Part shown: piece by piece, positions 5,450-34,213 of the stretch
Position numbering within the stretch: the first letter of the stretch is position 1
Layout of the letters: each line of letters starts with the position of its first letter
NCBI GenBank assembly: GCA_947258985.1
Contig: CAMYKI010000002.1
Location: 10,248 to 74,247 of the forward strand
Direction: 5' to 3'
DNA from: an uncultured Acidimicrobiaceae bacterium
GTDB lineage: Bacteria > Actinomycetota > Acidimicrobiia > Spongiisociales > UBA5794
DNA length: 64,000 bases
The notes under the pieces: model-generated
Told to the model about the DNA's origin: nothing
The model's input: the letters and a program-made list of their open reading frames with translations, nothing else
Databases searched by the model: none
Made by a program: the position numbers and the translations under genes

Positions 5450-6532
5450 TTAGCGGCGCCGCTTGATCTTCGGTGGCTTCTTGCGGGCCGACCGGGTCTT
5501 GACCTGTTTTGCTCCAGATCGAGCGCGGTAGGTGTCGGCGATTTCTGTATCGCGCGCCCAATTGCTGAAGCGGCGCATCATGGACGGTTTCGGCGGCTTC
5601 GGTTGAGCGCTCCTGGCCGCCATGTTCTGCGCAACCTTGGTCCGTCGGACACGTGATCCCACGCCAGGACTTGCCGCAGCGCGCGATTTGGCATGGCGAC
5701 CGTCAGAGCGCGCCCCGGCTCCAGCCGCCACCCGATTGCCAAATCCCTGGTTCTGCGGTTGCAGCAGGGCGATGGTTGCTATGAGGGCGATCAGGGTCAG
5801 CCCGATGATGGTCAACCACCACCAGTTGGCTGAGAAAAACGTGTCGTCACTGTCGGGCGGCAGGACAACGGCGGCCAGCGTGGTCGTCGTCGCTGGGGCC
5901 GCGGTCGTGGTTGTCGTTGTCTCCGGCGCTGCCGTTGTGGCCGGCGCTGCCGTTGTCGTCGTTGTCGTTGTTGTCGTCGACGTGGTGGTCGTTACCGGTG
6001 GCTCGGTTGTGGTGGTTGTCGTGGTCGTTGGGGCCGCGGTGGTTGTCGGTGCCCGCGTAGTAGTCGTCGGCGCCCTCGTTGTAGTTGTTGTGGTGGTTGT
6101 CGTGGTCGTTGGGGCCGCGGTGGTTGTCGTCGGCACGATGGACACCGCGATGGTGCAGGAGCCTCCGCTGCCGTCGTTGGCGTTCTCGTTGACGCCAACC
6201 GATCCGCTTCCGGAAGCGGAGCCGCCGACGCTGATGGATACCGTTGCCGTCCACGCCCCGCCACCTTCGCCGATAGATCCGCCTCCCACGATGCTGGCGC
6301 CGGCGACACCGGACTTACCTCCGAGCGAAGCAAACGCGGCGCTGCTGGAATTGAAGCTCACTGTCACCGACCGGGATTCACCCTGGGGAATACTGACCGA
6401 AGGGCACGACGCTGTGGCGCCTGCCTCGGTAGCAGTGGTGAGCAGAATGCCGACCGCGCCGAGCAGGACTATGAACGCCATCACGATCGGATAGCGGGGT
6501 GTTGCTGTCGTTGCCTGGTTCCGAGTCACCAA
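5450..6532 (-). CDS. Thr/Pro-rich type-I membrane protein (signal peptide, long poly-Thr stalk, one TM, basic cytoplasmic tail)
   Basis: Hydrophobic N-terminal segment, about 120 aa of TTTTT/APTTT low complexity, WWWLTIIGLTLIALIATIALL TM, Lys/Arg-rich C-terminus. The antisense poly-Val ORF 5622-6494 is a mirror artefact. Confidence 0.5.
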   Translation of the reverse strand: MVTRNQATTATPRYPIVMAFIVLLGAVGILLTTATEAGATASCPSVSIPQGESRSVTVSFNSSSAAFASLGGKSGVAGASIVGGGSIGEGGGAWTATVSISVGGSASGSGSVGVNENANDGSGGSCTIAVSIVPTTTTAAPTTTTTTTTTTTRAPTTTTRAPTTTAAPTTTTTTTTEPPVTTTTSTTTTTTTTTAAPATTAAPETTTTTTAAPATTTTLAAVVLPPDSDDTFFSANWWWLTIIGLTLIALIATIALLQPQNQGFGNRVAAGAGARSDGRHAKSRAAASPGVGSRVRRTKVAQNMAARSAQPKPPKPSMMRRFSNWARDTEIADTYRARSGAKQVKTRSARKKPPKIKRRR

Positions 6533-6651
6533 TTCACCTGTCTTGGGTCCCCAAAGGTTAGACGCGATCGTTAGATGCGCGTTCCGAAGCTATCGGATTC
6601 GTGCCAGGCTTCTTGAGGTGTTTGGCGGTCGAAGCCCAATGCCGTTGAGTG

Positions 6652-7977
6652 CTATTCGGGAGCGTAGATGCGGCTGATCGAGCGGGCATTCCCGTAGAGT
6701 CGGATGCCGTTGCCAACGGCGAGGCTCAGGGGTCGGGCAAAGGTTTGCGTGACCCCGGCGGTAGCGGCTGCCGCTAGTTGGAGTGGCGCCGAGATGAGAC
6801 TCACTATCGCGATGAGGCGGGCCCGGCGGGCCGCCACGAGTTCCTGCAGAACCAACACGAGTGCGGCCATGAGGATGTTCGCCCCGATGGTCGCCGGCAC
6901 CAGCCAGGCGACCTCAAAAGCCTTGGGAATGAGCGTAGCCATTGGGTTGCCCGCCCAGTCCCAGCCGGCAAGTGCCGTGTAGCCAACAGCGGCAGCAACA
7001 ACGATGGCGTTAAAACGGAGATGAATGGTGCGTGACACGCTGCGGTCGCCGGCGAGGGCGGCGGTCATGATCTTTGGGCCGAGGACATATCCAAGACCGG
7101 TCCCAAGCACGAGAACGGGAACAGCGGCAATCCGCGCGGCCTCGGCAAACCCGAGGATTTCGGGGCCTGCAGCAAACGTGATTATCGATGCTCCCGCAAA
7201 GGCACTGATTGTCGGCGTTGCAACACCGACCAGTAGCCAGGAGCCGGATTGGGAGAGGCTCCGCATGTGAATTCGCTCCGGCGCCGTGCCAGCCGGGAGG
7301 GACATGCGAGCCAGCCCCAGACCCACGATCAAGGACACAGCATTGGCAATTGCCAAGGATCCGTAGGGGATCCACGCCCGGGGCGCATCTGTCGCCGTCA
7401 ATATCGCAATTGAGCCAACGACGGCCAGGACTTGTGTAATCGAGACGGCTGCGGCAGCCCAAGATTTATGGGCGATATGGAGCGTGCGGCGCACGTGATC
7501 TTGCGTCGGCCACAGGAAAGTTGTGACGCCCGCAGTGAGCGTTAAGGGCACGACGAGGGCCGCCTCGACGATCTGAATTGTTATCAGACTCGCAACGCCA
7601 ATTGCCATGGCACCGGCAAGTGAGGGTCCCAACGCAAGCGGCATGCTCTGCCTGATAATGCGGAGCCTGTCTTCGATAGGCCAGGCAACCGCAACGACCT
7701 CAGCCGGTATGTACACGAGATTGTTGGCAATGACCTGGCCGAAGTTGAATGCGGTGTAGAAGACGGCGTAAACGCCGAGGTCGGCATCGTCGAGGAGATT
7801 GGCCGCCACGAGGGCCGCAATGAATGTGGCCAGCGAGGACATAGCTGCATCGATGACTCCAGGGGAAATCCCGCGCGCACTTCTGGCACTTTCGACATCG
7901 AGGGCCGCCTCCATGTCCCACTGCTGCATCGCGGTTCCCACGTCAGTTTGCTGCGGAGTGTGTGGGAACTCGCTCAA
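6652..7977 (-). CDS. Polysaccharide biosynthesis protein / Wzx-like oligosaccharide flippase (MOP superfamily)
   Basis: 441 aa, about 12 predicted TM helices, paralogous to the CDS at 20978-22300; located in a glycan-assembly gene cluster. Confidence 0.6.
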   Translation of the reverse strand: MSEFPHTPQQTDVGTAMQQWDMEAALDVESARSARGISPGVIDAAMSSLATFIAALVAANLLDDADLGVYAVFYTAFNFGQVIANNLVYIPAEVVAVAWPIEDRLRIIRQSMPLALGPSLAGAMAIGVASLITIQIVEAALVVPLTLTAGVTTFLWPTQDHVRRTLHIAHKSWAAAAVSITQVLAVVGSIAILTATDAPRAWIPYGSLAIANAVSLIVGLGLARMSLPAGTAPERIHMRSLSQSGSWLLVGVATPTISAFAGASIITFAAGPEILGFAEAARIAAVPVLVLGTGLGYVLGPKIMTAALAGDRSVSRTIHLRFNAIVVAAAVGYTALAGWDWAGNPMATLIPKAFEVAWLVPATIGANILMAALVLVLQELVAARRARLIAIVSLISAPLQLAAAATAGVTQTFARPLSLAVGNGIRLYGNARSISRIYAPE

Positions 7978-9502
7978 CCTGAGGGAATCGGGTTTCGGTG
8001 AGCACCGGTAGCCGGTTCTGCTGATTCAGTATCACCAGTGCCGAACCGGCGCCGTAGAACGCCCAGAGCAGCATTGACACCTGGGCTCCCTCGAGCGTCG
8101 GATCAAAAACGGCATTCACCAGTATGGGTATCGGGGCGAGCATGATCCACGTCGCCAGCGCCGACTCTCGCGGCCGGTCCCTGTAGCGAAGCCGGCGCCG
8201 CAGTGTCTGCATCTCCGCCATCCAGGTGATCCACAGCATGGCCCAGAGGATGATCCCTACCCAGCCCATGCGAGCGAGCACACCGACATGAGAGTTGTGA
8301 GGATTGCGCAGCGGATGTGTGGGGTCGGTGGAGATGTCGTAGCGCTCGCCCAGATCGGGTCCCGGGCCAAATCCCATGATTGGGGAGTCGTTGGTGACGT
8401 CGTCGAGTACCTGCTCCCAGATATTGAGACGCCAAGCTGTCGTCTCCGTCTGCCGTTGCCCGCCTTCGTCCGGGTTGAAGATGCTGGTGATGTTCTTGGT
8501 GAACTGCTCGATCGATATGTCGCGGTCGTCGAACAGCTCGATCTTCACGTCGAAGACCAGTCCGATCGACGCAAAGAACACAAGAATGCCCATCATCATC
8601 ATGACCATCTCGGTCCTGCGCTTGCTCAACAAGAACAACAAGGCTGCGATCAGGGCCGCGCTCGACACCATCCCGCCGCGATTCTGCAGGCCGGTGAAGA
8701 CGATCACGAGAGTCGCCACTGAAGTCAGCCAGGCTCGTTGCCTGGAGGTGAATAGTTTGGAGTCGCCGTCGGCCATCCATAGGAATGCGATTCCGATAGC
8801 CGAGAGCACTGCCATGTTCCCGCTGCGGTGAAAGAAGAGGGGAACCTCGGAGTCCGGGACGTAGATACTTTCACCGACAATTCTGTGGACCACAGTCGCA
8901 AACGGGTACCAAATGAGGTAGATGGGTAAGAGCTTGGCGAACGCGATCAACCATTCGTTGACCCGTTGCGGCCGGCTCACGAAAAGCATCACCACGAAGA
9001 AGGCAACCATTCCGTAATACCAGATAGCCGAGTCCCTGATGGCGTCGAGGCCGTAGGGGAGTATCCCGACTGCAAGCAATACCGCCCCCCACACCATGAA
9101 TACCCGCAACGCCCTGAGCGAAGAACTCGACCGGATTAGGGTCGGTAGACCAGTGTTGGTGGTGAAGATCACCGCTATCCCGAGAGCGAGCACCATCTCA
9201 CCGACAAACAGTGGGGTCCCTGGAACGTGGATCCAGGCGAATGGGCGGTCAAACATGATGTAGCCGGCAAGGACGAAGAGAAGCGCCGTGTTGAGCCACT
9301 CTGTCTGCCGGGCCTCGGGACCAACCGCTTGGGCGGGGGAACTGGTGCGGTGGGTTGACTTACCGGCCAGTGGCCGTTCTCGGGGGCGTCTTGCGGCGAC
9401 GAGCGCTCCGGCGAAAGCAAGGACTGTCACGGCGAGGACAATCCTGGACGTCGAACCGGTATTGGCCGCTACGACGAGCGGTGCGATGGAGAGTTCGATC
9501 AT
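7943..9502 (-). CDS. O-antigen ligase / Wzy-like polymerase family polytopic membrane protein
   Basis: 519 aa multi-TM protein with a large periplasmic loop between late TM helices, typical of the Wzy_C/O-antigen ligase family; in an operon with the Wzx-like and Wzz-like genes. Confidence 0.5.
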   Translation of the reverse strand: MIELSIAPLVVAANTGSTSRIVLAVTVLAFAGALVAARRPRERPLAGKSTHRTSSPAQAVGPEARQTEWLNTALLFVLAGYIMFDRPFAWIHVPGTPLFVGEMVLALGIAVIFTTNTGLPTLIRSSSSLRALRVFMVWGAVLLAVGILPYGLDAIRDSAIWYYGMVAFFVVMLFVSRPQRVNEWLIAFAKLLPIYLIWYPFATVVHRIVGESIYVPDSEVPLFFHRSGNMAVLSAIGIAFLWMADGDSKLFTSRQRAWLTSVATLVIVFTGLQNRGGMVSSAALIAALLFLLSKRRTEMVMMMMGILVFFASIGLVFDVKIELFDDRDISIEQFTKNITSIFNPDEGGQRQTETTAWRLNIWEQVLDDVTNDSPIMGFGPGPDLGERYDISTDPTHPLRNPHNSHVGVLARMGWVGIILWAMLWITWMAEMQTLRRRLRYRDRPRESALATWIMLAPIPILVNAVFDPTLEGAQVSMLLWAFYGAGSALVILNQQNRLPVLTETRFPQVERVPTHSAAN

Positions 9503-9623
9503 GGCCGTTCCTGGATCCGGGGTGCACCCCGCAAATCACCTGCGGAGTCTTCGCCTTCTATTTGAGTGTCACTGTACCGACGACGGCGGGCCTGTGAATG
9601 CGATCCCCCTCCCAAAACTGGGC

Positions 9624-11396
9624 CTATTCCGCCGGGGTCTCGGCGCCGGATCCGCCACGGCCGAGAATCTCGCGTCGCAGGGGGGCGAAGTTGTATACGT
9701 AACCCATCACCGGTACTCGGACTACCGCCAGGTACTGCCGGAGTTCCTCTGCCGTGGCAATGTCGCCCTTGTGCGGGACGACCACAAGGACCTGTTGTCC
9801 CAGGCGGACCACCGCGGAGCCGTGCGCCAGACGCAATACCGGTGGTGCATCTATCAGTACGAGATCGAATGACTCTTCGAGGGCATCGATGAGACCGGAG
9901 GCTTTGGTCGTACCGAAGAAGTCGGGCATCTGGCTCGCCAGGGTGCCTCGTTTGAACAGGGTGAGGTTCGTGCCGTCTGCACCGGTGAGGGACTCTCCGA
10001 CGCTTGCGAGGTCGGCTTCGCCGGCAGCAACATCCGTCAAGCCCTCGCCGTCCAGCCCTTCGGTGCTGAGAAGCGTCGTGAGTGCGGGGTTGACAAAGTC
10101 GGCATCGACCACGGCGACACGATTGCCACCGCGAGCAGCCGCAAACGCTGTGTTGGCGGTCACAGTGGTCTTGCCGTCGGCAAGCGTGGCAGAGGCCACC
10201 ACCACAGTCTTGAACGCGACATCGTCGTCGGACGAGTGCTGTCTGAGAGCAATTCCGGTAGCTACGAACCGGAACGATTCGGCTGCGGCTGAGTTGGGAG
10301 CGTCGGTCGTCGGCAAGTCAGACGAGAGGCGTTCGTCGCCGAATATCGGAATGTCGGATATGAGCCCGGTCTGGAGGATTGCCTGGGGTTCGCGCCGGGC
10401 TCGGAAGCTGCGCCGGCGCCGCGCCAACGATTGGGCGATTGCCGCACCGAGCATGGCTCCGCCGAGGACGCCGAGGACAATGAACAGGACACCACTTGAA
10501 GCTTCGGCGGTTTCTGCCGGCGAAGAGAAGACAACGCCGTTGCCGGCGAGTTCGGCGTCGACGGCAAGTTGGTCTCGCCGCAGCTGCAGGGCGCTGAGCC
10601 GGCTGCGCACCTCATCCTGCTGGAGGACGATTGCGGCGGTTGCTTCCTCGTCCACTGTGAACGTTCCAACTGCGATACGGAGCACGTTGACCCGGTCCCG
10701 GAGCTCTTCACGTCGCCGAGCCGATGCCGCGATCTCCTCGGGTGTTGCAGTTATCGGGGGCGCTTCATAAGCCAACAGTTCTTCGATGGCTTGCTGCAGT
10801 TGCGCCTCGGCGAGGAGTTGCTCGTCGGAAACCTCCTGCAGAACAGCGAGCTCGATCGACAGCTCAACGAGTTGTGCTTTCTGCTCGGCAATCTTGAGGT
10901 CCAGCTCCGCCAGGGCATCGCTGAATGTCGCCTCAGCTCCCTCCTGGCTGATGGACTCGTATGCGTCCGAGGTTGCGTTGGCCGCAATCACGGCTACGTC
11001 GGCCGTCGGATGTGAATAGGAGATGAAGATGAGATCGGTGGCCTCGGCGGCGCCGACCGTGAGGTTCTCTAGGTATTCGTCGATGTCGATCACGATCGGA
11101 TTCTCGAGGTCTGCGAGGTCGGAAAGGGTGCGGCGAGCCACGGACCTCGATCTGATGATCTCAATCTGGTCGGCCACGTACCTTGCTGGATCAAGACGTT
11201 GCGTCTGATCGAAGACAATCGAAGAACGAGGGTCCTGCACTGCGATTGTCGTCGCCGCCGTCCAGGCTGCCGAGGTCTGCGCAAACCACCAACCCAGGCC
11301 ACCAAAGACCAGGATGAACGCAAGCACCAGCCATCGGTATCGCCATGCGGCGCCGGGCAGCGTCGGTTCGAGATTGAGGTTTGTGGGCGTCAGCAT
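9624..11396 (-). CDS. Polysaccharide co-polymerase (Wzz-like) fused to a BY-kinase/MinD-like P-loop ATPase domain
   Basis: N-terminal TM + long coiled-coil periplasmic region + second TM; C-terminal Walker A (SATLADGKTT), Walker A' (VAVVDADF) and Walker B (DLVLIDAPP). No C-terminal Tyr cluster. Confidence 0.7.
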   Translation of the reverse strand: MLTPTNLNLEPTLPGAAWRYRWLVLAFILVFGGLGWWFAQTSAAWTAATTIAVQDPRSSIVFDQTQRLDPARYVADQIEIIRSRSVARRTLSDLADLENPIVIDIDEYLENLTVGAAEATDLIFISYSHPTADVAVIAANATSDAYESISQEGAEATFSDALAELDLKIAEQKAQLVELSIELAVLQEVSDEQLLAEAQLQQAIEELLAYEAPPITATPEEIAASARRREELRDRVNVLRIAVGTFTVDEEATAAIVLQQDEVRSRLSALQLRRDQLAVDAELAGNGVVFSSPAETAEASSGVLFIVLGVLGGAMLGAAIAQSLARRRRSFRARREPQAILQTGLISDIPIFGDERLSSDLPTTDAPNSAAAESFRFVATGIALRQHSSDDDVAFKTVVVASATLADGKTTVTANTAFAAARGGNRVAVVDADFVNPALTTLLSTEGLDGEGLTDVAAGEADLASVGESLTGADGTNLTLFKRGTLASQMPDFFGTTKASGLIDALEESFDLVLIDAPPVLRLAHGSAVVRLGQQVLVVVPHKGDIATAEELRQYLAVVRVPVMGYVYNFAPLRREILGRGGSGAETPAE

Positions 11397-11483
11397 TACT
11401 GACCTTCAGTGGCTGGAGGAAAACAGGAGCGAGCGTACTACACCGCCGCGGTAGGCCCCCCGTGGTGACGCGTATCTGGTTAG

Positions 11484-11686
11484 GAGACCGTTGCACAAAG
11501 GCGGTGAGGCTCGCCGGTGCAGCGAAGTGTCTGCTCGCGGGGCGGTCGTCGGGTCGGAACTCGCATTGTGCAGCGGGCTTCCAGGAGACGGTTGAGCAAA
11601 GGCGGTGAGGCTCGCCGGTGCGACGAAGTGTCTGGTCGCGGGGTAGGCGTCGGGTCGGAACTCGCATTGTTCAACAGTCTCCCAAG
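11484..11686. repeat. Intergenic tandem duplication, 2 copies of a ~101-bp unit (~85-90% identity)
   Basis: Copy 1 begins gagaccgttgcacaaaggcggtgaggctcgccggtgcagcgaagtgtctgctcgcgggg...; copy 2 begins gagacggttgagcaaaggcggtgaggctcgccggtgcgacgaagtgtctggtcgcgggg...; lies between divergent glycan-synthesis operons. Confidence 0.85.
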
Positions 11687-11903
11687 ACACCGCGCACGGG
11701 CGGTTCGGCTGCCGAGGTCACGCGGGCCGGCGCCCGCCGATTGCCGAGGGAGTAGCTATGACATAGCCAAGGTTGGGCCGCGTGTGTCGCCATCAACCAT
11801 GGATGGCTTAGGATGCGCACGCTGGGGCGCATGGCCCAAGCGTGGTAGAGACCCAATAGGGGGCGGGGGAAGTGATCCCGCCTCGGTAGAGAGGTAGGGA
11901 CAG

Positions 11904-12923
11904 GTGAAGCTACTAATTTTTGGCGCCGGAGGTTTTATTGGCTCGAACCTCGCTGAGCACCTGATCGAACAGGGTGAACACGAGGTGGTAGGGCTCGACG
12001 TCACCGCCGACAAGCTTGCCGGGATCGAGGGCCCGAACTTCAAGTTCGTCAAGGGCAACATCGCCGACGCCGACCTGGCAAACAAGCTGGTGGCCGATTG
12101 CGACGTCGTCGTCGATCTAATCGCATACGCCAACCCGAGCATTTACGTCGAGAAGCCACTCGATGTTGTGCATCTGAACTTCTTCGAGAACATGAAGATT
12201 CTCGAGTACTGCCTCAGTCATCAGAAGCGATTGGTCCAGTACTCGACGTCTGAGGTCTACGGCAAGCGCACCCGGGATGAGAGCTACAGCGACGACCATT
12301 CCGATCTCGTCATGGGTCCTGTGCAGAAGCAGCGTTGGATCTATGCATCGTCGAAGCAGTTGCTCGAGCGGATCATCTACGCTCACGGCGTCCAAGGCGA
12401 TCTGGACTACTCGATCATTCGTCCATTCAACTTCGTCGGACCGCGGTTCGACTACCTGGTTCCGGCCGGGTCCAAAGGCGGTCCCCGTGTGTTCTCTCAT
12501 TTCCTCTCGGCGTTGCTGACCGGTGGCCCGATCCAACTTGTAGACGGTGGGGATAAGCACCGCTGCTTCACCCACATCAAGGACGCTTGTGAAGCCTTCA
12601 GCGCGATCCTCGAGAATCCGGCCGGCCATAACGAGATCTTCAACGTTGGCAATCCGGACACCAATACAACGATGCGTGGTTTGGCCAAGATGATGCAGTC
12701 GATCTACGGGGAGCTCACGGGAACGCATCCTGACAATGAGCTCATCGACATCGACGGCGAAGACTTCTATGGCAAGGGTTACGAGGACATGGATCGGGTT
12801 CCGCCGGACGTGACCAAGCTCATGGCGCTTGGCTGGAAGCCGACCCGTGATCTCGATACGATCTTCCGCGAGGCGATCCAGTACTACCTGGATCGTCCTG
12901 ATCTGACAGCGGCCATTCGGTAG
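11904..12923 (+). CDS. NAD-dependent epimerase/dehydratase (UDP-glucuronate decarboxylase / ArnA-dehydrogenase-domain-like short-chain dehydrogenase/reductase)
   Basis: Rossmann motif MKLLIFGAGGFIGSNL, catalytic YASSKQ (YxxxK) motif, 339 aa. Confidence 0.7.
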   Translation: MKLLIFGAGGFIGSNLAEHLIEQGEHEVVGLDVTADKLAGIEGPNFKFVKGNIADADLANKLVADCDVVVDLIAYANPSIYVEKPLDVVHLNFFENMKILEYCLSHQKRLVQYSTSEVYGKRTRDESYSDDHSDLVMGPVQKQRWIYASSKQLLERIIYAHGVQGDLDYSIIRPFNFVGPRFDYLVPAGSKGGPRVFSHFLSALLTGGPIQLVDGGDKHRCFTHIKDACEAFSAILENPAGHNEIFNVGNPDTNTTMRGLAKMMQSIYGELTGTHPDNELIDIDGEDFYGKGYEDMDRVPPDVTKLMALGWKPTRDLDTIFREAIQYYLDRPDLTAAIR

Positions 12924-19921: not shown

Positions 19922-19971
19922 CAAGAGACAGACACCAAACTGACAATGGGCCCCGCTTGCGGGGCCCATTG

Positions 19972-25222: not shown

Positions 25223-26837
25223 CGGAGCGCGTACTTCCGGCGCCCTGGCCGGTGGCCATCCACTCGTCGAAGGTCAGATCCTCTCCATCCCAGGCAAACG
25301 CTTCGTGGCCTGCGCCGACATAGGTGTTGGTCTCGAAGACGATGTTGCGGTCGGTGAAGACCGAAGGGTCGCCCATGTCCTGTACGACCCCGCTCTGTCC
25401 GTACCACATAGTGATCGTGTTGTTGTAGACGCGGACATTCTCGAGCCGCCGCAACTCTCCGTCGCTCTCCCGACGCTGTTGGATTCCGGTAATGCCGTCG
25501 GCGTTATTGGTGACCACGTTGTCATAGACGTCAACATCGCTCGAAGCAGCGACGAGGATCCCCGCGCCCCATAGCCAGTCACCCATTATGAAGCCGTTGT
25601 CGTACACCTCGTTGTTGCGGATGACTGCGTCGAATGAGATCTCGTGGAAGATTCCAGGGGCGTTGTTGCTGTAGACGATGTTGTTCTCATACGTCGTGTC
25701 GTAACAGTTGATATCGGTCCAGAGCCCGGGACCAAGGTTGTGATGAGCCGTCACATCTCGGATGACGAGTCCTACTGTCTCCTTGAATTTGGCGCCGGCC
25801 GCTTCCCAGCCCCAGTTGAAGCCACGTAGGTTGTTGTGGTTGATCTCTGTTGATTCGACGAGGATTCCTTCTCCGCCGTCGGCTGTAATGCCTTGCTGGC
25901 CGTTGTGGTGGAGGTGGACGTTGCGGATTGTGGTCTGATTTCCGGCCCGAATCCCCGCGCCATGATTCAGCCTCACTTCGACATCTTCAATCAGCCAGCC
26001 AGAGCCGAGCTGTCCCAGGGACCTCTCCGACTGAATAGCGCCTCGTTGCGCCATCGAGGCGAATTTCTCGACGATCATGTTCCGGATGGTGACGTCGGCG
26101 GCATCGCTTCGGAAAGCACTCTCGGTCAGGCTCACCTCAACTTTGCGGCCTGCCGGGTCGTCACCGATGACGATGGTGCTGCCGTTTGACCACCACTTGC
26201 CCGAGTCGACCTCGGTGCGCTCGTCGACGCGCCACAACATGGCATCGTCGATGAAGAGATCGTTTCGCAGCCTGCAGGCCTCATAGCCGTCGATGCATTC
26301 ACCATGACCGTCCATATTCAGCCGAGGGCCGTTGGTCTCCCAGGTGTTGTCGCCGGCGGTGAAGTCATCGAGCAGCACCGAGCCGTTGAGAATGGTGCCC
26401 TCCATGCCCTCAAACGACATGCCGTTCTTTGGTTCGGCTCGGTTGGGGCGGTGGATGCCGGGCAAGAGGAGGAATGCTGTGCCTTCGGGGCTTTGTGCGA
26501 CGAGCGCAGCAAAGTCGTCGTCGGGTGAAACAACGATCGTCCCCTCGCTCACCTCTGGTGGAGTTGTGTCGACAGGGCTCGCGGTGGTTGTAGTCGCGTC
26601 GAGCTCCGGCGGCGGCAGCGTTCGGGGCGGGATCGATGTCGGTGGGATGGTTGTGGTCGGAGCAGCTGTTGTCGTCGGCGGCACCGTCGTCGAAGGACCG
26701 GCCGCCGTCGTTGAGGTCGTGGTGTCCGGAGGTACCGTTTCAGTGCTGTCCGTACCGCTACACCCGGTCAACAGGAGTCCGACTGCCAGGCTGGCCACCA
26801 TGAGTCGATGTCGTGTTCGGTTGCGCCCCAGCCCCAT
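25215..26837 (-). CDS. Secreted lipoprotein with Thr/Pro-rich linker and right-handed parallel beta-helix domain (pectate-lyase/NosD-like; putative polysaccharide lyase or hydrolase)
   Basis: Lipobox LLTGCSG; TTTSTTAAGPSTTVPPTTT linker; repeated NN-containing beta-helix turns (IRNNEVYDNG, HHNLGPGLWTD); paralogous to the catalytic part of CDS 28865-30574. Confidence 0.6.
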   Translation of the reverse strand: MGLGRNRTRHRLMVASLAVGLLLTGCSGTDSTETVPPDTTTSTTAAGPSTTVPPTTTAAPTTTIPPTSIPPRTLPPPELDATTTTASPVDTTPPEVSEGTIVVSPDDDFAALVAQSPEGTAFLLLPGIHRPNRAEPKNGMSFEGMEGTILNGSVLLDDFTAGDNTWETNGPRLNMDGHGECIDGYEACRLRNDLFIDDAMLWRVDERTEVDSGKWWSNGSTIVIGDDPAGRKVEVSLTESAFRSDAADVTIRNMIVEKFASMAQRGAIQSERSLGQLGSGWLIEDVEVRLNHGAGIRAGNQTTIRNVHLHHNGQQGITADGGEGILVESTEINHNNLRGFNWGWEAAGAKFKETVGLVIRDVTAHHNLGPGLWTDINCYDTTYENNIVYSNNAPGIFHEISFDAVIRNNEVYDNGFIMGDWLWGAGILVAASSDVDVYDNVVTNNADGITGIQQRRESDGELRRLENVRVYNNTITMWYGQSGVVQDMGDPSVFTDRNIVFETNTYVGAGHEAFAWDGEDLTFDEWMATGQGAGSTRSDG

Positions 26838-27154: not shown

Positions 27155-27859
27155 ATGCTGCAGGGTAGGACTGAACGTTCATCCATTGATGACGTAGTAG
27201 TTACAGGCGATGTGGCCGGCCAGCCGCATCTACACGTGGTTCCCGCGATTGCGCCGAGAGGCGCATATCAGCGGTTTGTGAAACCGACCATCGACCGTCT
27301 TGGGGGCATTGTGCTGTCGCTGTTGACGGCTCCCATCTTGATGGTGGTGATTCCGCTCATTTGGATCAAGCTGGGCCGGCCGGCGATCTTCAAGCAGAAG
27401 CGGATAGGCCTGGGTGGCAAGGATTTCACGGTCTTCAAATTGCGGACAATGCGACCGGATCGGCGTGCGAACGTCCTGCAGTGGGACGGGGTCGACCGTC
27501 GGGTCAATCACAAGTCACCCGATGATCCACGTCACGTACCGCTCGGGCGGTTCTTGCGCAAGTGGAGCCTCGACGAGCTGCCACAGTTCTGGAATGTCGC
27601 TCTTGGACACATGAGTCTCGTCGGACCGCGTCCCGAGTTGCCTGCGCTGGTTGACAAGTATGAGCCGTGGCAGCATCGCCGCCATGCGGTGAAGCCGGGA
27701 ATCACTGGTCTGTGGCAGGTGTCGGAGAGGGGCGATGTGCCGATGCATGAAGCCACCGATATCGACATCGAATATGTCGACACGGTCAGCCTTCGCATGG
27801 ACATGCGAGTCATGGTGATGACCATTCCGGCAGCGCTGGGCAGCAACAAAGGCCACTAG
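27155..27859 (+). CDS. Polyprenyl-phosphate sugar phosphotransferase (bacterial sugar transferase, EpsL/WbaP C-terminal domain type)
   Basis: Single TM then [18 protein letters not shown]...[24 protein letters not shown], hallmark of the bacterial sugar transferase family. Confidence 0.8.
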
Positions 27860-27900
27860 TCGGGCCTACCGACCGGGACCCCATTGATCATCTTGGGTTC

Positions 27901-28746
27901 TTGATTGAGGCGCGTGTATCGTTCCCGACTTCGGCAGCGCGGTCTGACGTTCGCCATAAGCCACCAGGAGGATTCGTGACCTTCCCCGACAAAGCACCCG
28001 TGGTCGGCATACCGATTTCGGTCACCTCGTATGACGAGGTGCTGGACGCGCTCTCGAACCGGCCCGAGGACAGAGCGACCATCGTTGCCGTGTGCAACGT
28101 TCACTCGGTCATGTCGGCGCGTCGCGAAACCGCGCTTGCGGAGGCGATAGGCGCCGCGGAGATCGCGACTCCCGACGGCGTACCGATTGTCTGGGGTCTC
28201 CGCGCCCTTGTCCGTCGTGACCAGGAAAGGGTGTATGGGCCCGAACTCATGCGGAGAGCGATGGTCGAGTCGGATCGCCTCGGATGGGCCCACTACCTCT
28301 ACGGGAGCACTCCAGAGACACTGCAGCAGCTTCAGGAAGCGATCGCCGAGATTGCCCCCGAGGCAAACATTGTCGGGTCGTTCTCGCCACCATTCCGACC
28401 GATGGATGAGGCGGAGACCGATGAGTCGCTCGAAGCCATCAGGAACAGCGGAGCCGACGTTGTTTGGGTGGGACTGGGCATGCCAAAGCAAGAGCTTTGG
28501 ATGGACAGTATCCGCGAGGACCTTCCGGGCGTTGCGATGCTCGGAGTGGGCGCTGCATTTGACTTCCTCGCTGGTACCAAGAAGCAAGCGCCAGCATGGA
28601 TGCAGAAGGCAGGGCTCGAGTGGCTTTTCCGGCTTATCCAGGAGCCGCGCCGACTGTGGCGAAGATACGTCTGGAACAACCCTGCCTACGCCGTTCTACT
28701 GCTCATGCAGGTAATGCGCAGCAAGCTCCGCCGCCCCAGTTCCTAG
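27901..28746 (+). CDS. WecB/TagA/CpsF family glycosyltransferase (GT26; N-acetylmannosaminyl-transferase-like linkage-unit enzyme)
   Basis: VVGIPISVTSYDEVLDAL...IVAVCNVHSVM...GVGAAFDFLAGTKKQAP, typical of GT26. The true start is probably an internal GTG near 27976. Confidence 0.75.
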   Translation: MIEARVSFPTSAARSDVRHKPPGGFVTFPDKAPVVGIPISVTSYDEVLDALSNRPEDRATIVAVCNVHSVMSARRETALAEAIGAAEIATPDGVPIVWGLRALVRRDQERVYGPELMRRAMVESDRLGWAHYLYGSTPETLQQLQEAIAEIAPEANIVGSFSPPFRPMDEAETDESLEAIRNSGADVVWVGLGMPKQELWMDSIREDLPGVAMLGVGAAFDFLAGTKKQAPAWMQKAGLEWLFRLIQEPRRLWRRYVWNNPAYAVLLLMQVMRSKLRRPSS

Positions 28747-28864
28747 AGGACTCGTTCTGGGCTAGGAGCCTGCTGAGCAATGTCAGTTTGGTCTCGCAGC
28801 AGCGTCTGTGACGGGGCGTTTTTCGTGGCCGTGCGAGTCCACACGCCATTTGCCCAGCAGTCTC

Positions 28865-30574
28865 TTAGTCATCGTGGCCGTAGGACTGCCACTCCGACCA
28901 GGAGATCTTCTTGTTCATCCACCACCACCCAACGTCGCCGGTGTAGGTGTTGCCCTCGTAGCGGATGTTTGAGGAGTAGATGCTGTTGTTGCCGACATCT
29001 TGAGCGGCGCCTGAGAGGCCACTGTCGATGATGGTGTTGTCGTGGACGTAATTGTTTTTGAGCGTCCACTCGCCGTAGTCCCCGGACCCGCGGCTCTGCC
29101 GGGTCATGCTGATGCCGTTGAAGTTGCCTTCGATGACGTTGCCGTAAACCTCGACGTTCTGTGACGTCGCAATCATGATGCCGCCACCCCACATCCACGC
29201 GTCGTGGTCAAAGCCATTGCGGCGGATCACATTGTTCCGAATTATTGCGTCGTAGCTGATCTCATGGAAGATCCCATTTGCGTAGTTGTCCTCGATGAGA
29301 TTGTCCTCGTACACAGTCCCGATGTTGTCGTGGTCGGTCCAGATTCCCGGGCCATGGTTGTGATGGGACCAGTTGCCGCGGATAACGAGGTCGGTGGTAT
29401 CCCACATCTTGCCGCCGCCGGCCTCGATGCCCCAGTTCCACTTGTCCTCATAGTTGTTGTAGGCAATCTCGTTGTCTTCGAGCAGGCCGCCATCGGTGTA
29501 GCGCACGCTCAGGCCGGATCGACCGTTGTGGTGAATGTTGTTGCCGCGTACGACCGGGTCACCCTTCTCCAGGTAGATGCCGGCGACGCGGTTGTGGTGG
29601 ATTTCGCACGACTCGATCAGCCAGTCACCGCCCAGACCGACAACGGCGCCACGCCATTGGTTCCCGGTGCTGTAGTTGCGGATCTCGAGGTTGGTGATCG
29701 AAACGCCCTTGGCCCCGGAACTGAATGCGTACGACACCGCATTGTCGCCATCCATGACTGCGCCCGAGTCACCAATGAATGCCTGATAATCCTTCGGACT
29801 GACGCTCTGGCGATGGTGCTCGCCGTGGATCATGAAGACGGTACCCGCCGGGTTGGAGGAGGCGATGCTTCCGATGTTGTCGCCGGGGTAAATGTGAACG
29901 TCGACATCGGTGGTGTCTACCCGCACCGGGGGTTCAATTGGCCTGAGGCCTTCCGCGCGTCCGAGGAAAGAGGCCATGGCGTCGCGGCGCACCGGCTGGC
30001 CCGGGCAGTAGCGATCGTTCGTCGGCGGATTGCACCCGAGAGTGATTCCGCTGGCGCGGAGCTTCTCGATCTCGTCCTCGAATATCGAACTGTTGTCGTC
30101 GCTGAACGGGTCGCCGGAAGTGGACCCGCCCAGGCCATACGCTCGAACCAGGAAGGCGGCCATCTGCCCTCGGCTCACGATATCGCCGGGGCAGTACCTG
30201 TTGTTGGCTGGTGGGTTACATCCCCCCGTGATGCCCGCGGCGGCCAGACTATTGATGGAATCCTCAAATACCGAGGTGTTGTCATCGTTGAACCAGTCCT
30301 GGCTCCCTGCCGCCGGGAGGTCCAGCGTCCTCACGAGAAACGCCGCCATCTCGCCGCGAGTGACGTTGCGGTCCGGGCAGTAGTGGTCGTTCAACGGGGG
30401 GTTGCAGCCGGCGGTGATGCCTTCCGCCGCAATGGCTTCGATATAGCCCTCGTGGATGTTGGAATCGTCATCGACAAATGTTCCTCCGGGAGGAAGAGCA
30501 CTGGCCGCGGCGGCGGGAATGAGCATCGCGAGAGTGATTCCGAGAACGGCGAGAGGGCGTGCAAGAGTGGACAT
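28865..30574 (-). CDS. Secreted protein: N-terminal triple SLH-like module + right-handed beta-helix (polysaccharide lyase/hydrolase-like) domain
   Basis: Signal peptide MSTLARPLAVLGITLAMLIPAAAASA; three SLH-like repeats (GITAGCNPPLNDHYCP...VTRGEMAAFLVRTL); beta-helix domain paralogous to CDS 25215-26837. Confidence 0.7.
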   Translation of the reverse strand: MSTLARPLAVLGITLAMLIPAAAASALPPGGTFVDDDSNIHEGYIEAIAAEGITAGCNPPLNDHYCPDRNVTRGEMAAFLVRTLDLPAAGSQDWFNDDNTSVFEDSINSLAAAGITGGCNPPANNRYCPGDIVSRGQMAAFLVRAYGLGGSTSGDPFSDDNSSIFEDEIEKLRASGITLGCNPPTNDRYCPGQPVRRDAMASFLGRAEGLRPIEPPVRVDTTDVDVHIYPGDNIGSIASSNPAGTVFMIHGEHHRQSVSPKDYQAFIGDSGAVMDGDNAVSYAFSSGAKGVSITNLEIRNYSTGNQWRGAVVGLGGDWLIESCEIHHNRVAGIYLEKGDPVVRGNNIHHNGRSGLSVRYTDGGLLEDNEIAYNNYEDKWNWGIEAGGGKMWDTTDLVIRGNWSHHNHGPGIWTDHDNIGTVYEDNLIEDNYANGIFHEISYDAIIRNNVIRRNGFDHDAWMWGGGIMIATSQNVEVYGNVIEGNFNGISMTRQSRGSGDYGEWTLKNNYVHDNTIIDSGLSGAAQDVGNNSIYSSNIRYEGNTYTGDVGWWWMNKKISWSEWQSYGHDD

Positions 30575-30674
30575 AATGTGGGCGACCCTACCCGACCCCG
30601 GGTGTTACCCGAACTAAGAAAACGATAAGAATTATTGATTCGACTGACTAGTCATTCGCCCGGTGGCGCAGGAC

Positions 30675-32183
30675 TTACCAGGTAGCAGAGCGCCCATTCC
30701 GGGGGAGCAGGCCACGGCCCATGCCCTCGTAAACCAGGCCGGCCTCACGAACCCGCTTTGCGTCAAACGCATTGCGCCCGTCCACGATGAGGTCGCCTCG
30801 CATCCGTGCTGCGACGTCGTCGAAATCCAGGTCCCGCAACTCGTCCCACTCGGTGAGAAGTACGACGGCATCGGCTCGATCAACCAACGAGTATGCATCG
30901 GTTGCTGTTTGCAGGTTGGGAAGCTCTGGAATCTGCTTCACCAGTGGGTCATAGGCCCGGACGATGGCACCCTTTTCGAGTAGTTCGCGGGCGACGGTGA
31001 TCGCCGGCGCATCTCTCGTGTCATCTGTGTTGGGCTTGAAGGCCAGGCCCAACAGGGCCACGCGGCTGCCCCGCAGGGGACGCAGGTGCTGCTGCAGTTT
31101 CCGGACGAGCCGTCTCCTCTGATGCAGATTGACCTGTTGCGCTGCCTCGAGGATCAGCGGTTCCTGACCGTGGGCGCGGGCCGTCGCCGCCAGCGCCTCG
31201 ACGTCTTTGCCGAAACACGATCCACCCCAACCAACGCCGGCTTGGAGGAACTTGGACGAGATCCGCGAATCGAGGCCGATGGCGTGAGCTACCTCGTCGA
31301 CGTCGGCGTCGACCCATTCGCAAATCTCGGCGATCTCGTTGATGAAGCTGATCTTGGTCGCGAGGAACGCATTGGCCGCATACTTGATCGTTTCAGCTGT
31401 AGACCGGTCGGTCGTTACCAGAGCGGGCCGTCGATCCGGTGCTCCGCCGGGGAACGTCTGGTCGAGAATCGGGCCGTAGGTCGAGGCAACGGTTCTCACC
31501 GCGTCGGCGTTGTCGCCACCGAGGACTATCCGTTCCGGATGCAGGAAGTCGTTGACCGCGCTGCCCTCACGGAGAAACTCCGGGTTGCTGACGACGCTGA
31601 ACACATCTGGTTCGACGACGTCGGGGAGCACGGCCTCGATTGTCGACGTCAGCCAGTTGCCGCTGCCGACCGGGACGGTGCTCTTAGTGACGATGACGTG
31701 AGGGGAGTGCATCGCCTTTCCGATTGACTTGGCCGCGGCAGTGACGCTGGTCACGTCAGGGTGCCCGTTCGGGCCGGGCGGTGTGTCGACGCAGAGAAAG
31801 ACCACATTGGACTTGCCCATCGCCTCGTCAAAATCGTCCGTGAAAGTGAGGCGTCCGGCCTCGATACCGGCACGAAGACGTTCATCGAGTCCTGGTTCGA
31901 AGAAGTAGGAAGACCCGCTCTGCAGCTTCGCCAGCTTCTCCTGATTGATCTCGACACCGATCACATCGTGGCCGATTGCCGCCATGCAGGCCGCCACCAC
32001 GGTCCCAACGTATCCGCTGCCGATAACGGCAATGCCGGAATCTCTGTTGTCGTTCACCCTATACCCCCGTATATTCCCGACCTGGCCATTCCGCGGATCG
32101 TTCTCCGCGGACCATTTCCATGTCACGCTGAGTATACGTCCGGGAACGCTTAGTGAGCTTTCGTTTCCCCCAACGAAACCCAA
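30675..32183 (-). CDS. Nucleotide-sugar dehydrogenase (UDP-glucose / UDP-ManNAc dehydrogenase family)
   Basis: IAVIGSGYVGTVVAA Rossmann motif, catalytic Cys region GGSCFGKD, C-terminal GLAFKPNTDDTRDAPA. The annotated ORF has an unlikely ~40-aa N-terminal extension, so the real start is probably internal. Confidence 0.75.
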   Translation of the reverse strand: MGFVGGNESSLSVPGRILSVTWKWSAENDPRNGQVGNIRGYRVNDNRDSGIAVIGSGYVGTVVAACMAAIGHDVIGVEINQEKLAKLQSGSSYFFEPGLDERLRAGIEAGRLTFTDDFDEAMGKSNVVFLCVDTPPGPNGHPDVTSVTAAAKSIGKAMHSPHVIVTKSTVPVGSGNWLTSTIEAVLPDVVEPDVFSVVSNPEFLREGSAVNDFLHPERIVLGGDNADAVRTVASTYGPILDQTFPGGAPDRRPALVTTDRSTAETIKYAANAFLATKISFINEIAEICEWVDADVDEVAHAIGLDSRISSKFLQAGVGWGGSCFGKDVEALAATARAHGQEPLILEAAQQVNLHQRRRLVRKLQQHLRPLRGSRVALLGLAFKPNTDDTRDAPAITVARELLEKGAIVRAYDPLVKQIPELPNLQTATDAYSLVDRADAVVLLTEWDELRDLDFDDVAARMRGDLIVDGRNAFDAKRVREAGLVYEGMGRGLLPRNGRSATW

Positions 32184-32380
32184 CCTGGGTCATGATCTAG
32201 CCCAATCGGCGGGATCGCTGACGAGTAGGATTGTAGGGCAAAGCACCGGCGGCCCGCTACGCCGGATCTAACTCGGTATCGACTACCGGAGATCCCGGTA
32301 AATCGCTCGACGGCTATCGTGCGGGACCGCGCTGCTGATGGGCGTAGATCGCGGGTAGGACAAGCGGTTGATAGTCAAGG

Positions 32381-34213
32381 TTGCTGATGGATAGAACACC
32401 GATATACGATGCTCAAGAAGAGCTCGAGCCGACCGTTGCCGGGGCCGCCTGGCAGTACCGGTGGCTCGTCCTGCTTCTGGCGGTCGCTTTTGCCGGCTTG
32501 GCCTATCTATACGCCAGCCGAGCGGAGTCGTGGACTTCGACGGCCTCCATTGCGGTCGAAGACCCTCGCGTGTCAAACCTCTTCACCGTGGGGTACGACG
32601 CGACGCCAGAACGGTACGTTCGCAGCCAGGCCGAGATCGTGTCGTCCCGGGCGGTTGCAGGCCGCGCCGTCGAGATTGCGGCAGCCGCGGACCCGTCGGT
32701 GGATGTGACAGTCAACTACATCGTTGAAGAAGGGCTCTCGGTCAACTCCGGCGGTGACAGCGATCTGATCACCCTGACCTATGAGGACATTACGGAATAC
32801 CGTGCCATCACGGTGGTCAATGCCGTCGCGACCGCGTACCAGGAGGTTGGCAGAGAGGCTGCCATCACCGAGTTCGATAGCGCGATTCTCGAACTCGAGA
32901 CCTCCATTGCTTCTCTCACCTCGGAACTGCTCGGCGTTCAGGATGAAATTCGCCGACTGCGCACCAGTGATGCCAATCGTCTTGCTCTCGAGGACCAGCT
33001 CGACTCGGCCATAGCCCGTCTGCTCGTGTTTCAGCCCAGCCGGGCGTCGGCGGACATCCTCGCGGTGAATGAGAGCTCCGCCCGCTTGAACGAAATGCGG
33101 CTCGAAATCGACACCATCCAGGCAGCCCTTGCCCGGCAGAACACGAACGTCGAGCTGCAGGCGTTGGAGAACCTCCAGGCCGACATCCGGCAGCGTCTTG
33201 TGGGGTTGCAGCTGGTTCGAGATCAGCGTGAAGTAGACGCCCAGTTGTCGCTGAGCGGAGTCGTCTTCTCCGACCCGGCCGACAAGGCTGTGCCGGGCTC
33301 TGTTGGTGTTCTGGTGCTGGGCGGATTCCTCTTCGGCGCAATCGTTGGTTCGGCGATTGCTCTTCCACTTTCCAGAGGGCGTCGTCGATTCGGTTCTCGC
33401 GGCGAACCCGAGAAGCTGCTTGGGATCCCGCTCGTCGCGGATGTGCCAAGTTTCCTCGACGAACGATTGACTACCAATCTCCCGGTTGTCGAAGCACCGG
33501 CGAGCGCTTCCGCCGAGTCGTATAGATTTGTGTCGGCGGCTGTCGCTCTCCAGCAGGATCGGTTGTTCGGTGAGCAGGATGCTGCGGTGTTCACGACGGT
33601 CGTGTTCACGTCCCCGGCGGTATCCGCCGGCAAGACGACTGCTGTGGCGAACACCGCTTTTGCTGCCGCCCTCGGGGGAAAGCGTGTGCTCGTTATCGAC
33701 GCCGACTTCTCCAGCCAGAGCCTCACCACGATGCTCGTGGACTCGCAAGTCCCCGAGCTTGGTCTGGCCGACGTCATCCAGGGCGCTGCCTCGCTCGGGG
33801 AAGCGGTTGTCAGTGTTGACCTCGAGGCGTCGGGCTCTTTGGATCTTCTTTCTTCCGGCACATCCGCGGTGTCGGCCGCCGATCTTCTGTCGCTCCCTGC
33901 GACCGGAGGGTTGTTCGGAGGGCTCTCGCATCACTACGACCTGGTGCTGATCGACTCGCCTCCGGTCTCAACAGTGGCCTACGCGACGACCCTGGTTCGG
34001 TTGGCCGAACGTGTGGTCGTCGTCTTCGCCCACGGCCAAGAGTTGCAGAGCGCTCAGGAGCTGCGACGTCAACTCGATACCATCGCGACTCCGGTCCTCG
34101 GCTATGTATACAACTTCGCCCCCCTCCGGGTTGAGATGACCCTCGCAGTGGGCTCTGCCAGCGACTACCGGCGCCGTGCATCCGAGTCGGAATCGACCTC
34201 CGCTGACAACTAG
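32381..34213 (+). CDS. Polysaccharide co-polymerase (Wzz-like) + BY-kinase/MinD-like ATPase domain (second copy)
   Basis: Paralogue of CDS 9624-11396: same architecture, Walker A SPAVSAGKTT, A' VLVIDADF, B DLVLIDSPP; a single Tyr in the C-terminal tail. Confidence 0.7.
   Translation: MLMDRTPIYDAQEELEPTVAGAAWQYRWLVLLLAVAFAGLAYLYASRAESWTSTASIAVEDPRVSNLFTVGYDATPERYVRSQAEIVSSRAVAGRAVEIAAAADPSVDVTVNYIVEEGLSVNSGGDSDLITLTYEDITEYRAITVVNAVATAYQEVGREAAITEFDSAILELETSIASLTSELLGVQDEIRRLRTSDANRLALEDQLDSAIARLLVFQPSRASADILAVNESSARLNEMRLEIDTIQAALARQNTNVELQALENLQADIRQRLVGLQLVRDQREVDAQLSLSGVVFSDPADKAVPGSVGVLVLGGFLFGAIVGSAIALPLSRGRRRFGSRGEPEKLLGIPLVADVPSFLDERLTTNLPVVEAPASASAESYRFVSAAVALQQDRLFGEQDAAVFTTVVFTSPAVSAGKTTAVANTAFAAALGGKRVLVIDADFSSQSLTTMLVDSQVPELGLADVIQGAASLGEAVVSVDLEASGSLDLLSSGTSAVSAADLLSLPATGGLFGGLSHHYDLVLIDSPPVSTVAYATTLVRLAERVVVVFAHGQELQSAQELRRQLDTIATPVLGYVYNFAPLRVEMTLAVGSASDYRRRASESESTSADN

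Follow-up and report, generated by a model that had tools for sequence, protein, structure and literature searches.

What surface polymer do the envelope genes lying between birA and asnS in an uncultured actinobacterium make, and did these genes arrive there as an inserted island? The window, which is the whole stretch of DNA analysed here, is 64 kb long and comes from the genome of an uncultured Acidimicrobiia bacterium (Actinomycetota), and the locus in question occupies positions 5450-34213, from birA to asnS. Acidimicrobiia abound in marine, freshwater and sludge communities, and to our knowledge their cell envelope is essentially uncharacterised. The best explanation, to which we assign a probability of roughly 0.6, is that these genes form a native, lineage-conserved Wzx/Wzy locus that directs synthesis of an acidic heteropolysaccharide of the cell surface and also encodes enzymes, tethered to the wall, that work on this polymer once it is exported. 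The locus would then offer a concrete, conserved candidate for a major surface polymer of Acidimicrobiia, together with its wall-docked tailoring enzymes.

A Wzx/Wzy-type assembly line

An earlier reading of this DNA, made from the letters alone (the sequence-only reading), had described a full Wzx/Wzy-type assembly line, comprising an initiating polyprenyl-phosphate sugar transferase, a TagA-like GT26, GT2 and GT4 transferases, two flippases, a Wzy/ligase-like polymerase, a nucleotide-sugar dehydrogenase and a GMC oxidoreductase, with gmd and fcl just outside. The Pfam and NCBIfam content, with family and fold evidence for the flippases, supports this description, and each of these components was recovered as follows.

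27155-27859, plus strand: small polyprenyl-phosphate sugar-1-phosphate transferase (PGT) of the Bac_transf family, the initiating enzyme (Bac_transf, E 4e-57; TIGR03025, 243 bits over the catalytic domain)
27901-28746, plus strand: GT26 glycosyltransferase of the WecG/TagA/CpsF family (PF03808, E 3e-60; TIGR00696, 161.7 bits against a cut-off of 69)
24020-25222, minus strand: GT4 glycosyltransferase (Glycos_transf_1, E 1.5e-20)
19972-21066, minus strand: GT2 glycosyltransferase (Glycos_transf_2, E 1.9e-37; best NCBIfam matches EpsE and TuaG, both below cut-off)
6652-7977, minus strand: Wzx-like flippase of the MOP superfamily, paralogue 1 (multiple transmembrane segments; adjoins the Wzy gene in relatives)
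20978-22300, minus strand: Wzx-like MOP flippase, paralogue 2 (AlphaFold2 model; family matches)
7943-9502, minus strand: Wzy_C membrane protein, the sole polymerase/ligase candidate (Pfam Wzy_C, E 3.8e-18, 66 bits against a cut-off of 31.7)
9624-11396, minus strand: polysaccharide co-polymerase (PCP, Wzz-type) fused to a P-loop ATPase, fusion 1 (Pfam Wzz, 26.6 bits against a cut-off of 25.5; ParA/AAA_31)
32381-34213, plus strand: PCP (Wzz-type) fused to a P-loop ATPase, fusion 2 (Wzz, 30.0 bits against the same cut-off of 25.5; AAA_31)
30675-32183, minus strand: UDP-glucose 6-dehydrogenase (three UDPG_MGDP_dh domains; TIGR03026, 427 bits against a cut-off of 190; TuaD-like, 435 bits)
11904-12923, plus strand: UDP-glucuronate decarboxylase, similar to UXS and the ArnA C-terminal domain (NF008872, UDP-4-keto-pentose/UDP-xylose synthase, 307.8 bits against a cut-off of 294; ArnA, 291 bits)
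22333-23985, minus strand: GMC-family FAD oxidoreductase (GMC_oxred_C, E 2.5e-23; GMC_oxred_N)
35814-37792, minus strand: fcl and gmd, for GDP-L-fucose synthesis, just outside the locus (GDPFucSynFcl, 298 bits; GDP_Man_Dehyd, E 1e-145)

The GT26 falls below the equivalog cut-offs of its family, scoring 89.8 bits against TarA (cut-off 350) and 122.6 bits against WecG (cut-off 323). Across the locus proteins the best NCBIfam neighbours are enzymes of teichuronic acid and exopolysaccharide (EPS) synthesis, namely TuaD, TuaG, EpsA, EpsE and EpsH. The gene at 11904-12923, which had been taken for an epimerase/dehydratase, is instead a UDP-glucuronate decarboxylase, with NF008872 above its cut-off. 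The true start of the UDP-glucose dehydrogenase probably lies about 45 codons downstream of the start of its open reading frame (ORF). The GMC gene adjoins the flippase gene across relatives; in the relative GCA_024223445.1 a pyruvyl transferase gene and a GT4 gene sit between them.

Neither Wzx-like ORF itself gave a Pfam or NCBIfam match, and a profile of the family found no match among PDB sequences. The two paralogues are 42% identical. A homologue search recovered 117 relatives, many of them named 'O-antigen/teichoic acid export membrane protein' by JGI, and in the aligned family of 41 sequences Polysacc_synt was matched by six, Polysacc_synt_3 by three and MatE by one. An AlphaFold2 (AF2) model of paralogue 2, built on the family alignment, reached a pLDDT of 92.5 and a pTM of 0.89; its top Foldseek matches in the PDB were structures of the lipid III flippase WzxE (9g9p/9g9n, TM-score 0.68-0.73), followed by MATE transporters and MurJ. 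The prediction that both multi-transmembrane proteins are Wzx-like flippases stands at the level of fold and family. The Wzy_C domain is common to polymerases, WaaL ligases and PglL-type O-oligosaccharyltransferases, and the protein carrying it here is a putative polymerase by domain alone.

The two PCP fusions, 40% identical to each other, show in translation a long extracytoplasmic region between two transmembrane segments and recognisable Walker A, A' and B motifs (ATLADGKT, VVDAD and LVLIDAPP in fusion 1; SAGKT, VLVIDAD and LVLIDSPP in fusion 2). They had been called fusions of Wzz with a bacterial tyrosine kinase (BY-kinase). The Wzz part and the P-loop domain of this claim hold, but the kinase part does not: the fusions end in '...APLRREILGRGGSGAETPAE' and '...LAVGSASDYRRRASESESTSADN', with zero or one Tyr past the conserved GYVYN strand, and the C-terminal Tyr cluster was absent from both window fusions and from all four homologues of relatives that were checked. 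Nor was the BY-kinase family model TIGR01007 (cut-off 108) reached, fusion 1 scoring 70.7 bits and fusion 2 81.8 bits. Lacking a tyrosine tail, the fusions probably do not autophosphorylate. Judged by these predicted features, they should be called PCP-P-loop ATPase fusions, which would act like BY-kinase co-polymerases but fail the defining BY-kinase feature. The locus otherwise resembles EPS and capsule loci with a PCP-BY-kinase (CpsC/CpsD; Wzc of Escherichia coli) in its PGT, glycosyltransferases, Wzx, Wzy and PCP with P-loop ATPase; it differs from them, besides the missing Tyr cluster, in that no outer-membrane export component was found in the window, as expected for a monoderm.

Proteins predicted to be tethered outside the membrane

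Within the same locus lie genes for proteins predicted to act outside the membrane, most of them anchored by S-layer homology (SLH) modules.

12936-15326, plus strand: secreted PIG-L deacetylase (LmbE/CE14-type) with cadherin-like and Big_9 domains and three SLH repeats (PIG-L, E 9e-22; Big_9; Cadherin_4; SLH)
15378-17150, plus strand: TolB-like PD40 β-propeller with three SLH repeats (PD40, E 7e-34; SLH; TolB model, E 1e-28, below cut-off)
17324-19921, plus strand: PD40 β-propeller with cadherin-like and PKD domains and three SLH repeats (Pfam)
28865-30574, minus strand: three SLH repeats with a β-helix domain resembling polyuronide C5-epimerases/lyases (SLH; Beta_helix)
25215-26837, minus strand: right-handed β-helix lipoprotein with lipobox LTGC and a T/P-rich linker (Beta_helix, E 6e-23)

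All 12 SLH repeats that were found fall in the four locus proteins, three in each, in agreement with the four SLH-like proteins noted earlier. Their homology to SLH domains, whose failure the sequence-only reading had named as a ground for refutation, is borne out: Pfam SLH scored 30-37 bits on the whole proteins (cut-off 20.8) and matched an isolated triple repeat in three separate stretches (E 8e-11), and the isolated trimer also matched solved SLH domains in phmmer comparisons that aligned two or three repeats (SbsB 4aq1, 1e-6; Sap 3pyw, 2e-5). The repeats follow the consensus F-x-D-x5-[IV]F-x2-[DS]I-x2-LA-x-AGIT-x-GC-NPP-x-N-x2-[FY]CP-x4-TRGQMAAFL. In SpaA and Sap the ligand-binding residues are SLH-Trp13, SLH-Gly29 (GIIxG) and SLH-Arg43 (TRAE), Gly29 and Arg43 binding the pyruvate ketal (PMC6081394). 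Arg43 is kept in 12/12 window repeats (TRGQ, TREQ, TRGE, SRGQ, RRDA) and GITxG in 10/12, the remaining two being one GVTKG, in which Gly29 is kept, and one REITKG; Trp13 is replaced by Phe or His. Furthermore, each window repeat has a Cys pair (GC-x8/9-[FY]CP) that is absent from the Firmicute proteins compared. A HMMER scan of 1.84 billion representatives found 37,339 matches to this variant at E<=1e-3 and 1,953 at E<=1e-30, and 148 of the 150 best matches carry the Cys-pair motif, mostly three times each. By this sequence criterion, the variant is very widespread rather than rare. It could serve to ask whether SLH anchoring always requires pyruvylation.

The AHPDD and HxDH motifs of the PIG-L protein are visible in its translation, and the SLH regions of the two PD40 proteins are 73% identical. 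Several relatives keep the PIG-L-SLH, PD40-SLH and SLH-β-helix genes within the locus, which argues for functional coupling between the tethered proteins and the polymer genes.

In the three adjacent SLH genes the SLH-encoding 3' ends (14813-15306, 16640-17133 and 19417-19907) are 62-78% identical in DNA, and the SLH regions share 73-78% protein identity versus 40-53% for the remaining parts. This pattern suggests that the anchor module underwent gene conversion or was shuffled recently.

The two β-helix proteins are paralogues (41% identical). As the database counterpart of the SLH-anchored one (P0388) has 553 aa, the true start of that gene is probably near 30526. The family profile matches the A-modules of mannuronan C5-epimerases (AlgE4 2pyg, 1.4e-5; AlgE6 5lw3, 2.9e-5), and the fold of the AF2 model (pLDDT 95.3) matches a phage tailspike depolymerase, AlgE4/AlgE6, PL6 alginate lyases, AlgG and chondroitinase B. 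This likeness, together with the UDP-glucose dehydrogenase in the locus, points to a predicted extracytoplasmic epimerase or lyase acting on a uronic-acid-containing polymer. Such a role would parallel that of AlgG/AlgE and the PL6 lyases, extracytoplasmic β-helix enzymes on a uronic-acid polymer, with the difference that SLH modules tether the window enzymes.

One further membrane protein stands at the birA end of the locus.

5450-6532, minus strand: membrane protein rich in Thr, Ala and Pro, comprising a signal anchor, a mucin-like tract, a transmembrane segment and a basic tail (translation, hydropathy)

Only residues ~220-348 of this protein, covering the C-terminal transmembrane segment and the basic tail, are kept in relatives (55-59% identity). 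PglL-like O-glycosylation of the protein by the Wzy_C protein was considered but is held to be improbable, as relatives do not conserve the Thr-rich tract. An antisense ORF (5622-6494, plus strand) shows a more typical GC1/GC2/GC3 pattern than the Thr-rich ORF, which leaves the coding strand of the repetitive N-terminal part uncertain.

A proposed pathway to an acidic polymer

From these gene identities we infer the following sugars and order of steps. UDP-glucose dehydrogenase would form UDP-glucuronic acid (UDP-GlcA), part of which the UXS/ArnA-like decarboxylase may turn into UDP-xylose or UDP-4-keto-pentose, and the adjacent gmd and fcl would supply GDP-fucose. On polyprenyl phosphate the small Bac_transf PGT would begin the repeat unit, which the GT26, GT4 and GT2 enzymes would lengthen, and the GMC flavoenzyme may oxidise a sugar. 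A Wzx-like MOP flippase would move the lipid-linked unit out, the Wzy_C protein would polymerise the units, and the two Wzz-type co-polymerase/P-loop ATPase fusions would govern chain length and export. Outside the membrane, the SLH- and lipid-anchored β-helix proteins (AlgE/PL6-like), the SLH-PIG-L deacetylase and the two SLH-TolB-like propellers may trim, epimerise, de-N-acetylate or organise the polymer, while the Cys-pair SLH modules would tether their proteins to a wall polymer, possibly the product of the locus itself. The polymer would contain GlcA and probably a pentose and fucose; the likeness of the β-helix proteins to mannuronan C5-epimerases and lyases, taken with the UDP-glucose dehydrogenase, fits a uronic-acid polymer. 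The fcl and gmd genes probably feed the same polymer as the locus.

The locus shares its parts list with the teichuronic acid operon tuaABCDEFGH of Bacillus subtilis, in which TuaA is a Bac_transf initiator, TuaB a MOP flippase, TuaC and TuaH are GT4 enzymes, TuaD is a UDP-glucose dehydrogenase, TuaE a Wzy_C-type polymerase, TuaF Wzz-like and TuaG a GT2 enzyme. TuaD and TuaG rank with the best NCBIfam neighbours of window proteins, and the product of the locus would likewise be an acidic, phosphate-free wall polymer. The window scores nevertheless lie far below the equivalog cut-offs (TuaD, 435 versus 700 bits; TuaG, 88 versus 400 bits), and the window also contains parts beyond those of the operon, namely a GT26, a UXS-like decarboxylase, a GMC oxidoreductase, the P-loop ATPase domains attached to Wzz, the β-helix enzymes and the four SLH proteins. 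No LCP ligase turned up in the window. The gene cluster follows the textbook Wzx/Wzy plan and is unsurprising to a specialist, the minor twists being the Cys-pair SLH variant, the PCP-ATPases without a Tyr tail and the secreted PIG-L deacetylase.

Gene order in relatives

The locus is bordered by the following two genes.

4721-5401, plus strand: birA, biotin-protein ligase, left flank (Pfam BPL_LplA_LipB, E 3.7e-17; TIGR00121, 108 bits against a cut-off of 83; position kept in relatives)
34288-35679, plus strand: asnS, right flank (tRNA-synt_2, E 4e-62)

Homologues of the window pccB (acyl-CoA carboxylase β subunit) are 89-93% identical in metagenome-assembled genomes named 'Acidimicrobiia bacterium', and homologues of the locus proteins are labelled likewise. 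The fullest comparison came from GCA_024223445.1 (contig JAAEOG010000902.1), which was seen as a left locus (L081) and a right locus (L092), the stretch between them being unseen. Its left part has the order of the window: birA, flippase 1, Wzy, PCP1, UXS, PIG-L-SLH. Its right part is window-like as well, with GT2, flippase 2, GMC, GT4, β-helix, PGT, GT26 and SLH-β-helix, continuing into Ugd (the UDP-glucose dehydrogenase), PCP2, asnS, fcl, gmd, fpg, cofE and cofD. Large parts are also syntenic in JGI 3300037692 (L083, L086), ERZ25039549 (L089) and ERZ27256991 (L094), and the asnS junction is syntenic in PVMS01136067 (L088), the one locus returned by a metagenome scan that used the second PCP as the query; GCA_024228555.1 was seen on the left side only. 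A PCP gene is followed directly by asnS in L088, L092 and L094, and the position of fcl and gmd is conserved in L092 and L094. The neighbourhood differs in a genome that is more distant (pccB 83%).

Protein identity to the window is 44-77% inside the locus, and for flanking genes it ranges from 54-63% (birA, cofD) up to 90-93% (gmd, pccB). The loci of these relatives appear to vary only in their middle, as O-antigen and capsule loci do: L086 and L089 have an additional epimerase and GT2, a third flippase paralogue is present in L086, and L092 contains an extra pyruvyl transferase and GT4.

Is the product a secondary cell wall polymer that is pyruvylated?

The combination of a TagA-type enzyme with SLH anchors had been read as the logic of secondary cell wall polymer (SCWP)/S-layer systems. 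This claim stood in part: the SLH modules are genuine and a CsaB-like gene occurs in one relative, but key SCWP enzymes are absent from the window and the initiator is not TagO. The corresponding explanation holds that the locus makes a peptidoglycan-linked SCWP that is itself the (pyruvylated) SLH ligand, as in Bacillus anthracis and Paenibacillus alvei, which implies that the locus encodes the anchor as well as the anchored proteins. We regard it as possible but doubtful.

The P. alvei/B. anthracis system comprises TagO, TagA, CsaB, Wzx/Wzy-like proteins and LCP (PMC6030368, PMC6081394). The window shares with it the TagA-family GT26, but the TarA equivalog cut-off is unreached and initiation falls to a Bac_transf PGT, not TagO, so that the canonical TagO/TagA linkage unit is not indicated. 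No PS_pyruv_trans domain, LCP ligase or TagO/WecA was found in any large ORF of the 64-kb window. As to the anchors, the likeness lies in triple SLH modules that retain SLH-Gly29 (GITxG) and SLH-Arg43 (TRGQ) and in SLH genes that cluster with the polymer genes and are conserved inside the locus, whereas the window repeats differ in carrying the Cys pair and Phe or His in place of SLH-Trp13, and in anchoring enzymes and propellers instead of an S-layer protein.

Pyruvylation itself gives a divided picture. GCA_024223445.1 encodes, in a syntenic position between GMC and the flippase (L092, 18128-19255), a 375-aa CsaB-like pyruvyl transferase with the extra GT4 beside it (PS_pyruv_trans, 1e-28, 101.5 bits; sole NCBIfam match CsaB TIGR03609, 8e-35, 120.6 bits, below its cut-off of 213). 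With this protein as the query, tblastn returned no match from the window, nor from the rest of the fetched relatives, and the gene is absent at the GMC-flippase junction of four other relatives (L086, L089, L090 and L094/L095, the last two being the same protein from two samples). This pyruvyl transferase weighs most heavily for the SCWP/SLH logic and also most heavily against its generality. Within the locus the SLH proteins are conserved, unlike the pyruvyl transferase, and pyruvylation by the locus does not appear, from these comparisons, to be a conserved feature.

SLH domains are common in Actinobacteria by domain counts (PMC6801904), and for the co-occurrence of SLH and CsaB 'a few examples within Actinobacteria' have been reported (bioRxiv 10.1101/2021.05.31.446380), which is in keeping with the SCWP explanation. 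No paper linking SLH domains to Acidimicrobiia was found in the literature searched.

A more speculative proposal, which we hold to be unlikely, takes the locus as a self-contained Acidimicrobiia envelope module, in which a non-pyruvylated, uronic-acid-rich wall polymer would be the ligand of the Cys-bridged SLH variant. The epimerase/lyase, the de-N-acetylase and the TolB-like organisers would then be docked on their own substrate, and optional pyruvylation, through the CsaB-like gene of one relative, would be a strain-variable switch of anchoring strength. If true, this would mean an SLH anchoring chemistry distinct from the Firmicute pyruvyl-ManNAc paradigm.

One polymer or two?

Several observations weigh against a single heteropolysaccharide pathway of the kind that we favour. 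The enzyme specificities are drawn from family-level matches below equivalog cut-offs, and the TM-scores of the β-helix fold matches are modest (0.45-0.62). Two flippases and two co-polymerases exceed the needs of one pathway. In ERZ27256991 (L094), after the right half (asnS to GT2), cytochrome c/b genes (19734-21635) take the place of the SLH/Wzy half; with its right half standing alone, this relative suggests that the two halves are separable modules and that they might serve two polymers.

These last points lead to a rival explanation, two independent glycopolymer systems side by side, with a left module (Wzx1-Wzy-PCP1-UXS and the SLH proteins) and a right module (PGT-GT26-GT4-GMC-Wzx2-GT2-β-helix-Ugd-PCP2) each making a different polymer. 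The divergence of the duplicated flippases and PCP-ATPases (40-42% identity), the right module of L094 without the left one beside it, and the third flippase paralogue in L086 are all compatible with it. We nonetheless consider it quite improbable, as neither module is self-sufficient: the left one has a Wzy candidate but no PGT or glycosyltransferase, and the right one has a PGT and glycosyltransferases but no Wzy candidate. This complementarity favours a single pathway with tailoring enzymes over two pathways. Moreover, the modules are adjacent in the window and wherever a relative's contig spans both (one contig each in GCA_024223445.1 and JGI 3300037692), and in ERZ25039549 (L089) the right module runs straight into the SLH-protein and UXS genes.

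Native locus or inserted island?

The sequence-only reading had regarded the locus as an island inserted between birA and asnS, a claim that fails on both composition and gene order. Conserved gene order in relatives, the ground on which that reading itself would give up the claim, is what is seen within this clade. GC content stays at 0.60-0.63 over all 64 kb and shows no step at either 5.4 or 34.2 kb, GC at third codon positions (GC3) is 0.734 for locus genes versus 0.737 for flanking genes, and relative synonymous codon usage (RSCU) correlates between locus and flanks at r=0.96. A tRNA scan of the window found none, an Rfam scan of the window was empty, and no integrase or transposase domain was among the Pfam matches of the window proteins. 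A horizontally acquired accessory island, although it would account for the variable middle and for locus proteins that have diverged further among relatives (44-77%) than have pccB, accA and gmd (83-93%), is very improbable indeed given this uniform composition, the conservation of both junctions and of the gene order in relatives whose pccB is only 89-93% identical, and a birA that is itself just 54-58% identical, so that the divergence extends beyond the locus. Judged by sequence composition and synteny, the locus is a native, lineage-conserved one and not an insertion.

Flanking genes and minor features

Left of birA lie accA and pccB, and right of asnS lie fcl, gmd, fpg, cofE and cofD. 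A contig scan with asnS, which depends on exact peptides, gave matches of only 55-65% from other phyla; these do not count as evidence for horizontal transfer of asnS, since relatives retain the gene in place at 81-83% identity. An ORF at 35766-37055 (plus strand) was also rejected as a gene, the region being accounted for by fcl on the opposite strand.

Another feature lies in the 508-nt divergent intergenic region between PCP-ATPase fusion 1 and the UXS-like gene.

11482-11683, plus strand: tandemly duplicated 101-nt hairpin element (folding; copies 86% identical)

Each 101-nt copy forms one long plus-strand hairpin (-48.7 and -48.3 kcal/mol; z-scores -2.45 and -4.02), and several stem differences between the copies look compensatory. 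The element has no Rfam match, and blastn against the relatives' loci found none.

On the far side of the carboxylase genes, beyond accA, the window carries an asparagine-synthase-like gene (14-1204, plus strand) where L081 and L083 carry methylmalonyl-CoA mutase, which is a local rearrangement relative to these relatives. Beside cofD, a gene for a 931-aa protein is followed by one for a DUF5719 protein (40476-44659, plus strand). The 931-aa protein gave no significant Pfam or NCBIfam match, only a faint GT2-like one (E 0.013), and a 921-aa gene occupies the same place beside cofD in L092 and L094. Farther right, a 734-aa ORF (46003-48207, plus strand) without a Pfam or NCBIfam match has good coding GC3 (0.77) and stands upstream of a GT2 gene (48695-49417, minus strand) and a phosphomannomutase-like gene (49480-51024).

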